Positions 30,336 through 36,896 are shown, numbered from the stretch's first letter. The stretch: DNA of 64,000 bases from an uncultured Thermomicrobia bacterium (GCA_937968015.1 CALBSO010000143.1:31346-95345); one strand, 5' to 3'. The notes: generated by a model not told the origin, from the sequence alone. Made by a program: numbers and translations.

Positions 30336-31454
30336 GTGAACGTGTTGATCGTTGACGAGCGAGCGGCGGAAGCAATCGCGCTCGGCGCGGGCATCCTCGG
30401 CACAGGCGGCGGCGGCAACCCCTATCTGGGTTTTTTGATGACTCGCGAACTGCTACGGCACGGAGCGAAGATCGCGGTTACCGGGGTGGCGGATGTACCG
30501 GACGACGCGGTTGTCTGTGGGATTGGTGCGATGGGCGCGCCGACCGTTGGCATCGAGAAGTTACCGCGTGGCGATGAGCCGCTGGCCGCGCTCCGGGCAC
30601 TGGAGCATCATACCGGATGCCGTGTCACGCATCTTATCGCCGGTGAAATTGGCGGCGCGAACGCGATGCAACCCCTCATTCAGTCCGCGTTGAGCGGACT
30701 GGCGGCGATTGATGGCGACGGTATGGGGCGGGCATTCCCAGAGCTGCAACATTGCTCATTTTCGATTGGCGGCGTGCCCTGCACGCCGGCAGCGATCGCG
30801 GATTGCCACCATAATACCGTGGTTTTCCCCGCCTTGCGCGACACAGAGACGCTTGAACGGTTCGCACGCGCCGTGACGGTGCAAATGGGCGCGCGTGCCG
30901 GATATGCGTTCCCGATCATGTCGGGTGCGGAGATGAAGCGGACCGCCGTGTCCGGCTCCTACACGCTGGCGCACGCCATTGGGCGAGCGGTGCTGACGGC
31001 GCGCGCCGCGCACACGGACCCGATCGCCGCCATCCTGGCAATAACAGAGGGTACGGTGCTCCTGCGTGGGCGGATTGTGGATGTCGAGCGGCGGCTGGTC
31101 GCCGGGTTCGCCCGCGGTCGTCTTGAGATCATGGGCACTGGCAGCGACAGGTTGCGCGAGATAGAAATTGCCTTTCAGAACGAGAATCTCGTTGCTTGGG
31201 AAGGGCCGCGTCGGCGGCGGGTGCTCGCAACGGTGCCGGATCTGATTACGCTCGTAGACGAGGAAACCGGCGACCCGGTGACGACGGAGATCACCCGCTA
31301 TGGCCTCCGGGTCGCCGTTCTCGGCATGCCGGCGCCTCAGCAACTGAAAACAGCCGAAGCATTGGCAGTTGTCGGGCCGCGAGCATTCGGCTACGACGTG
31401 CAATTTACTCCACTTCCGGGCAGATACGGTAGGGCGTGTCCTCAGTTGTGGTAA
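30336..31454 (+). CDS. DUF917 family protein (usual partner of hydantoinase-like genes)
   Basis: LGAGILGTGGGGNPYLG is the DUF917 N-terminal signature as I recall it. GTG start 6 nt after the hydantoinase stop. The last 6 codons plus stop (CPQLW*) are encoded inside the left inverted repeat described below. Confidence 0.7.
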   Translation: MNVLIVDERAAEAIALGAGILGTGGGGNPYLGFLMTRELLRHGAKIAVTGVADVPDDAVVCGIGAMGAPTVGIEKLPRGDEPLAALRALEHHTGCRVTHLIAGEIGGANAMQPLIQSALSGLAAIDGDGMGRAFPELQHCSFSIGGVPCTPAAIADCHHNTVVFPALRDTETLERFARAVTVQMGARAGYAFPIMSGAEMKRTAVSGSYTLAHAIGRAVLTARAAHTDPIAAILAITEGTVLLRGRIVDVERRLVAGFARGRLEIMGTGSDRLREIEIAFQNENLVAWEGPRRRRVLATVPDLITLVDEETGDPVTTEITRYGLRVAVLGMPAPQQLKTAEALAVVGPRAFGYDVQFTPLPGRYGRACPQLW

Positions 31455-31456
31455 GG
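31433..31456. repeat. Left copy of inverted repeat (GGCGTGTCCTCAGTTGTGGTAAGG)
   Basis: The 20-nt core 31437-31456 is the exact reverse complement of 33187-33206. The 24-nt extension has one mismatch (G/A). Confidence 0.95.
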
Positions 31457-33097
31457 GCGATTCTCCTCTGACCGCATGTCGGCGAAGGAGGGGAAGATCC
31501 GCAGGCGGAGGTCGCCGACCGTGATCGCCTGGCTGTCGGCGTTGGCCGGCGCGCTGGGGGGCGTCGCGTCGCGCAGCCGGGCGAAGAGCGCGCCGAGCGG
31601 GTTGCGATTGTCGGGGTCGAAGGGTCCATTCCCGACGCCGACTACTTGGAGTACCTGCGGCCAACTCCCCCAGGCGGCGCGACGATCCGGCTCGGGGCCG
31701 CCGGCGAAGTGGGCCAGGTAGCGCCCGAGCACGAAGACGTAGACCTTCTGCACATGGAACCGCTTCGCGGCGCGCTCGTCGAAGCGGGCCAGCAGGTCGT
31801 CGGGGCCGTGGCGCTGCACCCATTCCAGGATCGCCGAGACCTGGCGGTTGGCATGGAAGAAGTTGTCGCGCTGCCGCTGCCGCTCCTCAATCGAGCGCGC
31901 GAAGGGGTCCTGCGCCTTCAGCTCGAAGACGCCGAGCGTGCCGGTCTTGCGGTCGAAGACGAGGGCGTCGAGGTCGGTGCGCGCCTCGCCGCTCCGCTTC
32001 AGTTCGACCCGTCCTGCGCTCAGGACGAAGCGCCTGTCGCCGAAGAGGCGGTAGAGATCCTGCCGGAAGACCCCCTCGCGCAGATGGGCGCTGTTGTGAT
32101 ATTCCTGCGCGTGGCGGCGGCGCAGTTCGCGCGTGAGGAAGATAAGGGGTTCGCCGAGCAGCCCGAGCGCCGACCAGACCACCCGATTCTCGTCGAGACG
32201 GATCAGCGGCGGCGCGGCGCGGCCCGGGAGAGTGCTGTGGTAGGCGGCGTTGTCGTGATCGAGGATAAAAGGCTGGAGGGCACGCCCGATCGCCGCCGGG
32301 TCGGCGTCGAGCGCATCGGCCAGCGCCGCGATCATGGCCCGTTCGTCCCGGGGCGTGGGCGTGTGATCACCGTCGGGCGCGCGACGGTCGCGCTCGCGGT
32401 GCAGCCAGCCGATCAGCAGCGCCAGGATATCGGTGTACTGGCCGAAGGTGGCGCCGCCGATCGCCGCGTCGGCCGGGTAGCTGTGCTGGCAGGCGAAGCG
32501 GGCGACGTGGGCCTGGCCGAGCTGGCGATAATAGCGTTCGACGGTCGGGTCGCTCACGACAAATTCCTCTGTTTCGGGGATGGGAGCACCCTCCTGGCCG
32601 AGGAGCGCACGCATCCGGTGTCGTTCGACGAGGAGGGTAGCCAGGCGAGGGGCGACCTGCCGCGTCAAGTGCGTCGACCACCAGTCGAAGTCGGCCCGCT
32701 CACGCTGCTCGGTTGAGAGGCGCCGGCTCGTCGCCCAGGCGACGAAGGTACGGGGAGCGCGCTGCTGAAGTTGCAGGTGGCCCGACGCGCACTGCGCCAG
32801 CACCAGGCTGGCGAGCGCCAACTGGTCGCAGTCGGCGAGGAATCGTTCGGCCCGGGCGGCGAGCATTGCACGGTCGGCGGGAATGTCGCCGTCCTCGTCG
32901 CCTTGCCGTTCCAGGCAGAGCCGCAGGGCCAGATTCCAACCTGGTCGCGCGGCCTGCGCGGGATCGCCGGCGAGCGCCATCGTATCCCCGGCGCGCAACA
33001 GCGCGAGCAGCGCCCGCGCGCGACCCGGCGGCAGCGTGGCGGCGACCTTGGCGCTGATTTCTGCCAGCAACTGGCGGCAGCAGTCGAGCTGCGTCAT
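31442..33097 (-). CDS. Hypothetical protein (551 aa) with a C-terminal PD-(D/E)xK-like nuclease motif
   Basis: Long ORF with protein-like composition; the antisense ORFs look like GC artefacts. Residues about 335-465 fit helix(E)-strand-strand(D375/D377)-strand(E392-x-K394)-helix(Q)-strand: HLREGVF...RVELK...TDLDALVFDRKTGTLGVFELKAQ...NRQVSAILEW...VYVFVLG. Confidence 0.65.
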   Translation of the reverse strand: MTQLDCCRQLLAEISAKVAATLPPGRARALLALLRAGDTMALAGDPAQAARPGWNLALRLCLERQGDEDGDIPADRAMLAARAERFLADCDQLALASLVLAQCASGHLQLQQRAPRTFVAWATSRRLSTEQRERADFDWWSTHLTRQVAPRLATLLVERHRMRALLGQEGAPIPETEEFVVSDPTVERYYRQLGQAHVARFACQHSYPADAAIGGATFGQYTDILALLIGWLHRERDRRAPDGDHTPTPRDERAMIAALADALDADPAAIGRALQPFILDHDNAAYHSTLPGRAAPPLIRLDENRVVWSALGLLGEPLIFLTRELRRRHAQEYHNSAHLREGVFRQDLYRLFGDRRFVLSAGRVELKRSGEARTDLDALVFDRKTGTLGVFELKAQDPFARSIEERQRQRDNFFHANRQVSAILEWVQRHGPDDLLARFDERAAKRFHVQKVYVFVLGRYLAHFAGGPEPDRRAAWGSWPQVLQVVGVGNGPFDPDNRNPLGALFARLRDATPPSAPANADSQAITVGDLRLRIFPSFADMRSEENRPYHN

Positions 33098-33186
33098 CGG
33101 CCATCGCTCACAAACTATCCCTGAAAGCCGGCGCAGGTTCCAGCGGCTGCCGCACGGTGAATGGGTACCCGAACCCCTCCCGCCTA

Positions 33187-33210
33187 CCTTACCACAACTG
33201 AGGACATGCC
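33187..33210. repeat. Right copy of inverted repeat (CCTTACCACAACTGAGGACATGCC)
   Basis: Reverse complement of 31433-31456 with one mismatch. Weaker similarity (9 of 16) continues outward. Confidence 0.95.
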
Positions 33211-33241
33211 AAGCCGTGTATTGTCCACCGAGTAAGGGGTT

Positions 33242-33287
33242 TTACAATTTCTTTACATTTGCTGGTACAGATTCTTACAGCGGTACG
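33242..33287 (+). promoter_or_regulatory. Phased TTACA/GTACA direct repeats (candidate OmpR-family response-regulator boxes)
   Basis: TTTACAatttcTTTACAtttgctgGTACAgattcTTACAgcggTACGA. TACA starts at 33243, 33254, 33266, 33276 and 33284 (spacings 11, 12, 10, 8), 45-90 nt upstream of the kinase ATG. TACGAT could serve as the -10. Confidence 0.4.
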
Positions 33288-34898: not shown

Positions 34899-36896
34899 AT
34901 GCGTCGTCGGCTGCTCTTCTTGCGGCGGTCACCGGTTGTCGCGTTTGTGATTTTGCTTGCGAGTGCGGTAACGGCGTGCGGCGTTCCGGGCGTTCCTTTG
35001 AAGCCGAGCGTACCGGCACCCGATCAGACGGCAAAGGTACAGCGCGGCACAATTCGGACGATCATCGGTGCGAGTGGCGTCGTTGCGCCCTTTCAGGAAG
35101 TGCTGCTGAACTTCACGTCAGGCGCGACGGTCAAGACCGTCAATGTGGTGATTGGCCAACGCGTGACCACCAATGACACGCTGGGGGCGTCCGATGCGAG
35201 CGACTTGCTCCTGACTCTCCAACAGCAGCAGGCAAACGTCGCCTCAGCGCAAGCGAAATACAATCAGACCGCTGCGGGCGCCACGCAAAAAGACATTGAT
35301 GTTGCACAGGCGAACGTGGACGCCGCACGGGCGAAATACCAGGCGACGGCGACGATCAATCCGAAAGATATCGAGGTCGCGCAGGCAAATCTCGACGCCG
35401 CGATCGCGAAGTACAATGGCGTGATCGCCGGCACTGTCACGCCACAGGACATCGCCAACGCGGAAGCGGCGGTTCGTGCGGCCCAGGCGAAACTCGATGC
35501 GCTTCGTGCCGGCCCGCTGAAAGCGGATGTCATCTCGGCGCAGAGCAAGGTGCAGCAGGCGCAGCAAAACCTTGACAAGGTGAAGTCGGATAGCGCGAAC
35601 ACGAAGGAGCAGGCACGGATCAAGTGGGAACAGTCCGCCGATGCGACGCGCGACGCGCAGCGCAAATTCGACATTGCCAACGCGACGTACCAGCAAGCGA
35701 AGTCCACAAACCTGGACCCATCCGCGTCTGGCGGCTCGTCCACTGTCGGTAAGGGCACCCCGGCGCCTGCGCAACCAACGATCACCCCATTGCGGCTCGA
35801 TACCCTCAAGCAGGCTGCGGATAGCGCTTATCTCACAGAGCAGCAAGCGGAGAAGACCCAAGAAGCGAACCGGCTCGCCTACGAGAACAGCAAGAACGCC
35901 GAGATTAATAACGTGGCGACGGCACAGCAGCAATTGAATGACGCGCAGTCGGCGCTCAGTAAGTTGCTCGCCGGGCCGACAAACGAAGACATTACGCAAT
36001 CGCAGGCGGCAGTTGATCAGGCGCAGGCGCAATTGGACAAACTAAAGCGCGGACCGACGGACTCTGATGTCGCGGCGGCTCAGGCGAGCGTGGACTCGGC
36101 GCGCGCGACTCTCAACGATCTTCTTGGTGGACCGAAAGCGACCGACCTTCAGCAGGCGCAGGCCAATGTGAATTCGGCGGTCGCCACATTGAATGATCTC
36201 ACCGCGGGGGCCAAACCGACCGACCTTGAGACCGCACTCGCGGCACTCGATCAGGCGAAGGCACAGCGTGACCTGGCGCAATTGAAGGTGGATCAGGCGA
36301 CGATCCGCGCGCCCTTCCCGGGTATCATCACGCAGGTGAATGTCGTTCCCGGACAAGTCGCCAGTGGTGGTACGACGGCCACGAATCCACCCGCGTTCGA
36401 CCTCGTGGACGACTCGCAATTGCACATTGATGTCAATGTTTCCGAGAGCGATGCGGCAAGCGTGCAAGTTGGTCAGCAGGCGCTTATTTCGCTCGATTCC
36501 GTACCGGGGCAACCCCTCCCCGGTAGCGTTGAGCGTGTCTCGCCTGTCGCCACGACCACGCAAAATGTGACCGCGTTTCCTGTCCGCATTGCGATTGCGC
36601 CGACGCAGGCGCCAGTCAAGCCGGGTGCGAACGCGACGGTGCAAATCGTCACGGCGGTTCGTACGAATGTCCTCACGATTCCCTCCCGCGCGGTCACCCA
36701 AGTGAACGGCCAGCCAGGGGCAACGGTCTTATACAATGGCTCGACATTTCTTGTGCCAATCCGCACGGGCCTCACGGACGGACGAAACACCGAAGTGATT
36801 AGCGGCCTCAACGATGGCGATGTTGTCGTTCTCCCCAAGGTCGGTACCGGAGGTGTAGCCGCGCCACCGGGCGGCGGCGTGCGGCTAGGAGGGTAA
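34899..36896 (+). CDS. HlyD/MacA-family periplasmic adaptor lipoprotein with a greatly extended alpha-hairpin
   Basis: Signal peptide with lipobox VTAC. The lipoyl half-motifs are separated by about 365 aa of Ala/Gln-rich helical repeats. C-terminal beta-barrel and MP domains (IRAPFPGIITQVNV..., VQIVT...VLTIPSRAV). Confidence 0.85.
   Translation: MRRRLLFLRRSPVVAFVILLASAVTACGVPGVPLKPSVPAPDQTAKVQRGTIRTIIGASGVVAPFQEVLLNFTSGATVKTVNVVIGQRVTTNDTLGASDASDLLLTLQQQQANVASAQAKYNQTAAGATQKDIDVAQANVDAARAKYQATATINPKDIEVAQANLDAAIAKYNGVIAGTVTPQDIANAEAAVRAAQAKLDALRAGPLKADVISAQSKVQQAQQNLDKVKSDSANTKEQARIKWEQSADATRDAQRKFDIANATYQQAKSTNLDPSASGGSSTVGKGTPAPAQPTITPLRLDTLKQAADSAYLTEQQAEKTQEANRLAYENSKNAEINNVATAQQQLNDAQSALSKLLAGPTNEDITQSQAAVDQAQAQLDKLKRGPTDSDVAAAQASVDSARATLNDLLGGPKATDLQQAQANVNSAVATLNDLTAGAKPTDLETALAALDQAKAQRDLAQLKVDQATIRAPFPGIITQVNVVPGQVASGGTTATNPPAFDLVDDSQLHIDVNVSESDAASVQVGQQALISLDSVPGQPLPGSVERVSPVATTTQNVTAFPVRIAIAPTQAPVKPGANATVQIVTAVRTNVLTIPSRAVTQVNGQPGATVLYNGSTFLVPIRTGLTDGRNTEVISGLNDGDVVVLPKVGTGGVAAPPGGGVRLGG

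Follow-up and report, generated by a model that had tools for sequence, protein, structure and literature searches.

Within a 64,000-nucleotide (nt) stretch of DNA from an uncultured Thermomicrobia bacterium (GCA_937968015.1, CALBSO010000143.1:31346-95345), analysed as a whole and referred to here as the window, a gene encoding a 551-amino-acid (aa) protein is bracketed by two inverted repeats which sequence comparison identifies as left ends of an IS5-family insertion sequence (IS), and the resulting cassette interrupts the last codons of a DUF917 gene. We consider it probable, at roughly 0.8, that this cassette represents a decayed composite element, or a unit resembling a mobile insertion cassette (MIC), which consists of a left inverted repeat (IRL), the gene and an inverted IRL, is devoid of a transposase, carries a nuclease as its passenger and was inserted into the DUF917 gene. 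The features concerned are the following.

30336-31454, plus strand: DUF917 (S-Me-THD) gene, assigned by Pfam, with its last 7 codons replaced by the insertion
31430-31431, no strand: TA, left copy of a putative 2-nt target-site duplication, the right copy of which (33211-33212) reads AA
31432-31456, plus strand: left arm, an IRL copy, GGGCGTGTCCTCAGTTGTGGTAAGG, whose outer tip is 31432
31442-33097, minus strand: passenger gene, 551 aa
31916-31969, minus strand: catalytic strands D377-ALVFDRKTGTLGVF-E392-L-K394, from the translation
33098-33186, minus strand: leader between the IRL and the start codon, conserved with relatives in alignment
33187-33210, minus strand: right arm, upstream of the open reading frame (ORF), an IRL copy that reads GGCATGTCCTCAGTTGTGGTAAGG on the minus strand
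33213-33235, plus strand: displaced original 3′ end of the DUF917 gene, just right of the cassette
33221-33248, plus strand: TTGTCC-16-TACAAT, a predicted sigma-70-like promoter serving the histidine kinase gene downstream, outside the element

The repeat, TGTCCTCAGTTGTGGTAAGG, is located at 31437-31456 on the plus strand and recurs as its exact reverse complement at 33187-33206, and just these two matches are present in the 64-kb window even where up to three mismatches are allowed, shuffled sequences giving an expectation of 0.00. A preliminary description of this DNA, made from the sequence alone, had reported a perfect 20-nt inverted repeat, lengthening to 24 nt with one mismatch, had judged a chance origin to be negligible and had placed exactly one gene (551 aa) between the arms; the mismatch-tolerant motif scan, the shuffles and the ORF analysis, in which the arms bracket a single long ORF, are in agreement with each of these points. 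In a repeat search the pair lengthens further to 31 nt at 87% (31426-31456 and 33187-33217), the right arm carrying a single internal mismatch (A for G), while the arm tips are unlike, GGGCG as against TGGCA. The left arm encodes the ends of two genes, the DUF917 gene (CPQLW-stop) and the 551-aa ORF (PYHN-stop), both of which were located in that arm as had been described.

A scan of metagenomes with the exact 19-mer of the repeat retrieved four contigs, and in three of these (L017, L018 and L019) the motif forms the left end of a complete element of approximately 0.83 kb. These complete ISs begin CTAG/GGCGTGTCCTCAGTTGTGGTAAGGT and end ..CTCAAC-TGA-GGACACGCC/CTAG (terminus ..CTCAACTGAGGACACGCC/CTAG), with the slash marking the edge of the element, and they encode OrfA (PF13340) and a frameshifted OrfB (PF01609), a DDE transposase, which score 129.5 and 158.2 bits against the NCBIfam model NF033580, 'IS5 family transposase', where the cutoff is 110. 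The left arm is identical to the IRL of the three complete copies, the terminal 25 nt of the cassette being the IRL that heads them. The IRL and the right inverted repeat (IRR) of this IS are alike in their outer 16 nt only, and both arms in the window hold the IRL-specific inner part (..GTGGTAAGG) and not that of the IRR type (..GAGGAGGAT); on this comparison both arms are assigned as IRL copies of an ordinary IS5-family DDE element. When read backwards the IRL always encodes ..PYHN-stop, which accounts for the odd C-terminus of the 551-aa ORF. No transposase was found when the 64-kb window was searched by tblastn with OrfA and OrfB, and the sole long ORF between the ends is without a DDE family match, so that the cassette is not an autonomous IS5 element; as IS ends flank a non-transposase gene and a transposase is absent inside, it corresponds to a non-autonomous IS derivative or MIC. 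The IS from which the ends derive (NF033580 transpos_IS5_3, with DUF4096 and DDE_Tnp_1) resembles the IS427/IS1031-type subgroups of ISfinder. Elements of the IS427/IS1031 type duplicate 2-4 bp at TA/CTAG-like targets. With IS5-family ISs that have a frameshifted two-ORF transposase the cassette has in common an identical terminal 25 nt and a G-TA-G insertion site, whereas its interior is occupied by the gene for the 551-aa nuclease.

Comparison with empty sites in relatives establishes the cassette as a true insertion into the last DUF917 codons, because the empty-site join restores the orthologous DUF917 C-terminus without gaps. DUF917 orthologues at 75-86% identity end in ..PLPGxYGG(R/D)VLSxx-stop, the window copy ends in ..PLPGRYGRACPQLW-stop (..YGRACPQLW-stop), and joining 33213-33235 to 31432 yields ..TAC GGT AGC CGT GTA TTG TCC ACC GAG TAA, that is, ..YGSRVLSTE-stop. 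In the window the cassette has as neighbours, by Pfam, a hydantoinase, the DUF917/S-Me-THD gene, a HAMP-HisKA kinase and a HlyD-type adaptor. Three loci reached via DUF917 orthologues (L027, L028 and L029) represent empty sites in which the kinase directly follows DUF917, and they share with the window the gene order OCD, FAA hydrolase, aminotransferase, hydantoinase, DUF917, kinase, adaptor and ABC; the reconstructed join 31432/33214 aligns gaplessly to all three. Exact look-ups of the kinase and hydantoinase proteins returned the same locus only. The earlier suggestion that the element had landed on the 3′ end of the DUF917 gene and rebuilt it is thus backed by the empty sites and by the displaced tail, the search for empty sites that had been proposed was successful, and what the relatives hold is an empty site and not the same gene in the same place without the repeats.

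As defined by the empty sites, the inserted DNA runs from 31433 to 33213 (1,781 nt) and corresponds to the element 31432-33210 plus 2 nt, a presence/absence polymorphism with its boundaries exactly at the IS ends. The cassette had previously been bounded at 31433-33210, of which the left start stands and the right limit is moved to 33213. The earlier report that no target-site duplication could be found holds in so far as there is no clean one, but an imperfect TA/AA pair is present at the tips; C-TA/../TA-G flanks are shown by the complete ISs of L017 and L018 as well as by the composite of the related locus L001, and L019 too has TA on both sides. The window flanks are compatible with a 2-nt duplication that carries one substitution. 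With regard to the assemblies, two independent contigs containing the exact hydantoinase of the window (L025 and L026, from JGI 3300025134 and 3300022557) both end 363 nt into DUF917, and a second contig from sample 3300022557, the one with the cassette, begins inside the same DUF917 gene; these contig breaks upstream of the cassette suggest heterogeneity among strains or an assembly broken by a repeat.

Between the window and close relatives, nucleotide homology spans 33210 down to 31455, and therefore the right arm travels with the gene while the left arm does not. An IRL is present directly upstream of the homologue in 10 loci (the window, L001-L006, L016, L036 and L038), with the IRL-bearing homologues showing 84-92% aa identity and lacking any common synteny, and as at least nine different outer flanks abut the IRL tip, this tip constitutes a repeated boundary of movement. 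None of the 15 loci that were fetched has a neighbouring gene in common with the window, even at 92% protein identity. The repeat is absent from homologues at 39-75% identity and from some at 85-90% (L032 and L035), and some relatives have an extra insert of approximately 100 nt in the leader. In the relatives the native C-terminus is ..EDRPA-stop, from which the window diverges exactly at the start of the left arm, and since the PYHN ending occurs in 0 of 120 homologues, the fusion is private to the window lineage.

Downstream of the gene the relatives possess approximately 35 nt followed by the outer part of the IRR in the same direction. In L001 this IRR is succeeded by the last 40 transposase codons on the reverse strand and then by an inverted IRL tip; the remnant is 82% identical to OrfB (PF13586, E 1.7e-6), is bounded by GGCGTGTCCTCAGTT and comprises a single stretch of 146 bp, the two IS copies that flank the cargo of a composite transposon not being present. 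A tiny palindromic scar, GGATGTCTCCTCAACTGAGGAG, located downstream of the homologue in L038 (4629-4700), looks from its sequence like the tips of an IRR and an IRL fused after near-total deletion of the IS, and thus like a decay intermediate. L001, L038 and the window form a decay series in that order, the window being the most reduced form in which just the 24-25-nt IS ends survive. L032 keeps a degenerate IRR downstream and has no IRL upstream.

Some of these loci show peculiarities of their own. At L032:7990-8010 the GTG start of the relative without an IRL, which is 85% identical, overlaps the stop codon of ruvA, an arrangement which suggests that the gene was domesticated and taken into a housekeeping operon. 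At L035:3972-4740 a PIN/MazE-type toxin-antitoxin pair is found directly upstream of another close homologue that has no IRL. The composite of IRL, gene and IS remnant in L001 is flanked by an identical 120-nt unit in direct repeat (L001:1-120 and L001:2142-2261), which is bounded by 22-nt inverted repeats (CTAGTACTACAGCGACACTTCA ... TGAAGTGTCGCTGTAGTACTAG), with position 1 of L001 being a contig end; the unit could be an element similar to a miniature inverted-repeat transposable element (MITE) that was hit by the composite, or an assembly-graph loop. A first scan for conserved inverted repeats around the relatives returned this 22-nt repeat of L001 alone, which differs in sequence from that of the window, and as an alternative element end it was rejected, consisting as it does of the flanking 120-nt unit plus the IS tip.

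The history that we propose for the cassette would begin with an ancestor in this clade composed of a solo IRL, the gene, approximately 35 nt and a full IS in reverse orientation. The outermost ends of such an ancestor would be two IRLs, which an IS5-family DDE transposase could have used to move the whole unit, and this unit would have been inserted at a G-TA-G site in the last DUF917 codons, pushing the tail of that gene aside. In the window lineage an internal deletion may have extended from nucleotide 25 of the IRL through the IS and the IRR and taken the final three codons off the passenger gene, leaving 25 nt of the IRL fused to the gene and so generating the PYHN-stop end. Movement could have taken place either before or after loss of the transposase. 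The passenger may itself act as a stand-alone sensor-plus-nuclease protein in defence or abortive infection.

The element is of a known kind, albeit that a configuration with an IRL at either end is unusual. MICs have been described, for example, as MIC231 of Bacillus cereus (Chen et al. 1999, Mol Microbiol 32:657, as cited in PMC6542083), and others, found in Xanthomonas, are derived from Tn3-like elements (PMC4337579). The window cassette is like these in having IS-type inverted repeats around passenger gene(s), no transposase and an insertion polymorphism, and movement in trans by the cognate transposase, which is presumed for MICs, is likewise a presumption here. It differs in that its ends are of the IS5 family and both of the IRL type rather than an IRL and an IRR, and in that its target-site duplication is imperfect; because both ends are IRLs, descent from a composite (a solo IRL plus a whole inverted IS) is preferred to replacement of a transposase gene. 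Composite transposons of the Tn10/Tn5 type carry inverted IS copies on either side of their cargo. The window cassette similarly has cargo between inverted outermost ends of the same IS-end type, whereas a mere 24-25 nt of each IS are left in it and the relatives hold at most one decayed IS.

Several points weigh against a decayed composite. No full-length IS adjoins the gene in L001-L016, L030-L032, L035, L036 or L038, the ancestral composite is reconstructed from remnants alone, no second copy of the exact IRL-gene-IRL form was found and current mobility is conjectural. In addition, the tip of the right arm is degenerate, the flanks, TA at the left edge and AA at the right, differ by one substitution and so give no clean target-site duplication, and movement of a unit with two IRL ends by this IS is putative. 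The unlike tips, the imperfect duplication and the private 3′ arm would also suit two separate events, in which the gene came first, together with its upstream IRL, and was later joined at its 3′ end by the insertion of an independent IS that then decayed. We regard such a course as improbable, given that the empty-site comparison places an IRL tip precisely at either boundary of the inserted DNA, that a second IS would have required precise insertion at the DUF917 junction, and that L001 independently shows the same outer architecture from IRL to inverted IRL with TA on both sides. Very little credence can be given to the proposal, made in the preliminary description, of a new single-ORF IS that has the 20-24-nt repeats as its own termini and the 551-aa PD-(D/E)xK protein as its transposase. 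The layout does resemble that of an IS, with inverted repeats, a single ORF, raised GC content and a real insertion, and close homologues occur in many different genomic contexts; however, the same repeat heads complete IS5-family elements with their own DDE transposase, both arms are of the IRL type of that IS, many members of the family, including the more distant homologues and the close ones in L032 and L035, are without the repeat, and the protein is shortened by its private fusion to the 3′ arm. Moreover, the 15 genomes from which loci were fetched yielded one family locus per metagenome-assembled genome (MAG). A nuclease that cooperates with the DDE transposase in the manner of TnsA was also considered, and is argued against by the lack of IS ends in most family members.

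The perfect inverted repeats around a 1.7-kb segment, together with a promoter-like site just outside it, had likewise led to the suggestion of a site-specifically invertible segment which would switch the gene relative to an outside promoter. This is just as hard to sustain, as no invertase or recombinase gene is present within 10 kb on either side, all four independent assemblies with the locus have it in one orientation, and the repeats are fully explained as IS ends. A possible outside promoter had been read on the minus strand; the promoter-like site identified outside the segment is on the plus strand, faces the kinase and belongs to an intergenic region that is found in the empty sites as well. 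Of a further suggestion, namely a stand-alone defence-type nuclease gene whose mRNA ends can pair, the nuclease part is plausible for the cargo, but the pairing of 5′ and 3′ ends is unsupported and, since the arms are explained as IS ends, is not needed to account for the repeat.

The cargo of the decayed composite is identified as a PD-(D/E)xK nuclease by its catalytic motif and predicted fold. Residues E341, D375, D377, E392, K394 and Q409 are invariant in 32 homologues (49-92% identity), and the AlphaFold2 (AF2) model, with a predicted local distance difference test (pLDDT) score of 86 and a predicted TM-score (pTM) of 0.88, has the core order alpha-beta-beta-beta-alpha-beta, with a predicted helix at 338-350 (containing E341) and predicted strands at 378-382 and 387-394 (D377, E392-x-K394). 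The nuclease core that had been proposed by eye for this ORF is therefore upheld by both residue conservation and the model, and the structure-prediction check that had been recommended, carried out with AF2 and Foldseek, returns a nuclease fold. According to the model, the protein comprises a mostly helical N-terminal part (residues 1-335), the PD-(D/E)xK core (approximately 335-490) and a small C-terminal beta domain. When compared with the PDB by Foldseek, the model gave one match below E 1e-3, which was Upx (9wuf; E 8.4e-4, probability 1.00, query TM-score (TMq) 0.33), followed by Card1 (6xl1), Can2 (8q44), R2 RLE (9dou) and Bax1 (6p4w), all of them PD-(D/E)xK enzymes; noise aside, the Foldseek matches are PD-(D/E)xK nucleases, and a viral library gave weak PD-(D/E)xK matches only. 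A separate model of residues 1-335 (pLDDT 86) retrieved nothing in the PDB, Upx included, and the N-terminal domain, as modelled, is without detectable relatives among solved structures. We predict the passenger to be a Mg-dependent PD-(D/E)xK nuclease to which a novel N-terminal domain is fused.

Upx, 1,272 aa in length, is an anti-phage PD-(D/E)xK nuclease that consists of a single protein and has the catalytic residues D1161, E1176 and K1178 (PMC13099982), and it senses the phage terminase (PMC13601566). The window protein is like Upx in its D-to-E spacing of 15 (D377/E392 as compared to D1161/E1176), in the C-terminal position of the PD-(D/E)xK core, in the large unannotated domain N-terminal to the nuclease and in its single-gene organisation. 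It is unlike Upx, which has an N-terminal domain (NTD)/sensor, a middle domain (MD) and a C-terminal domain (CTD) over approximately 1,200 aa, in being 551 aa long, and its family does not grade into the length of Upx. Full-length homology to the Upx CTD was rejected on the grounds that the N-terminal 335-residue model fails to retrieve Upx, and membership of the Upx family was rejected in view of the lack of a sequence match, the lengths of 551 and 1,272 aa and a likeness confined to the nuclease part. Card1, Can2, R2 RLE and Bax1 have the core fold in common with the window protein (weak Foldseek matches), yet they possess other sensor or accessory domains, and the window protein contains neither a CARF domain nor a known partner domain.

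The 551-aa protein has no match in Pfam, NCBIfam or PADLOC, and neither phmmer with the ORF nor hmmsearch with the family profile found a match among PDB sequences, that of 9wuf included, at E up to 10, in keeping with the original impression that the ORF resembles no known family. Nothing credible in Pfam or PADLOC was obtained for the 32 aligned homologues; PADLOC gave no match for the window protein and 31 of the 32 aligned members, and the remaining one matched a non-Upx model at E 0.13. The PADLOC models presumably include one for Upx. The family, which is absent from Pfam, NCBIfam and PADLOC and hence previously unannotated, amounts to 632 clusters when grouped at 50% identity, of which 261 have E <= 1e-30, and its hundreds of homologues of the ORF stem nearly all from MAGs of Chloroflexota/Thermomicrobiales. 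Family members are nearly all 550-570 aa in length and align end to end, and the family, apparently present once per genome, is widely retained in Thermomicrobiales. The ORF has a GC content of 0.70 and a GC content at third codon positions (GC3) of 0.86, compared with 0.626 in the remainder of the window and a GC3 of 0.67-0.75 in the neighbouring genes, and the gene is richer in GC than its surroundings at nearly every locus examined; the foreign origin that had been deduced from locally raised GC is borne out by these values and by the empty sites. The ratio of nonsynonymous to synonymous substitution rates (dN/dS) against the relatives is 0.21-0.46, consistent with moderate purifying selection on the passenger gene.

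Among the outlying members of the family, P0295 (1,116 aa) and P0307 (1,143 aa) are long proteins with the family module of approximately 500 aa at their C-terminus (in P0295 residues 603-1103, hhalign probability 99.9), and their N-terminal extension of approximately 590 aa has no Pfam match; their total size recalls that of Upx. A 27%-identical relative of residues 186-539 is encoded at 6941-8005 of L039 (MT836369.1, 'UNVERIFIED: Bacteriophage sp.', from human faeces), an unannotated, phage-labelled contig of 10.8 kb which was the sole match in the phage collection, with none in IMG/VR.

A role in defence or abortive infection, for which we would allow an even chance at best, is nonetheless the most likely one for the cargo, because the gene is accessory (it is missing from the orthologous loci of close relatives), GC-rich and moderately selected, stands alone in unrelated contexts and has one homologue in a defence island. 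This homologue (582 aa, 26% identity over residues 186-537) is encoded in L033 (367-10405 of the Sinorhizobium fredii GR64 plasmid pSfreGR64a, NZ_CP137019.1) with a 1,820-aa protein, DndH-like at its C-terminus, plus Vsr on one side and the BovA (Borvo) CHAT protein on the other, and its neighbourhood is a recognised defence island. It is possible, though rather doubtful, that the family of approximately 560-aa proteins as a whole constitutes a new single-gene anti-phage system with an N-terminal sensor and an Upx-like effector, of which one Thermomicrobiales clade has been packaged between IS5 left ends to give a minimal defence cassette open to mobilisation by a resident IS. A defence role is countered by the marginal similarity to Upx (TMq 0.33), which is gone when residues 1-335 are used alone, by the location of most homologues amid housekeeping genes and not in defence islands, by the lack of a PADLOC match for the cargo, and by the failure to find relatives in IMG/VR viral contigs. 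The same element could instead carry a cargo unrelated to defence that hitch-hiked on the IS ends, such as a nuclease of DNA repair or recombination or one of a selfish, addiction type, and this would be in line with the solitary position, amid metabolic or housekeeping genes, of most family members, one of which directly follows ruvA with overlapping stop and start codons, as well as with the empty PADLOC search and with the apparent single-copy state and wide retention in Thermomicrobiales. We nevertheless find it unlikely, as the gene is accessory, close relatives lacking it at their orthologous loci, as each genome has it in another context and as its dN/dS is relatively high, the nearest solved structure is a defence nuclease and a distant homologue resides inside a defence island. 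With respect to the motif itself, the L033 homologue and P0295 have FQLK instead of FELK, an E to Q replacement in the ExK motif.

With the arms assigned to an IS5-family element, an eye-catching perfect inverted repeat becomes ordinary IS biology and the proposal of a new nuclease-type transposase is removed. The cassette offers a clear natural case of an accessory gene captured between two like IS5-family ends, complete with an exact empty site, a rebuilt host-gene tail and a decay series. The family of 632 clusters, in which a novel domain is combined with a PD-(D/E)xK nuclease, can reasonably be put forward as a candidate new defence gene of the Chloroflexota, few of whose defence systems have, to our knowledge, been tested experimentally. 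Elsewhere in the window, at 35000-36250, a strong positive AT skew (up to 0.36) was observed within the HlyD-like adaptor gene; its interpretation as a DNA tandem repeat was rejected, as the region encodes a long coiled coil, rich in Q/A/K/D, in which a degenerate DI..AQA.LD.A.AK periodicity is seen.

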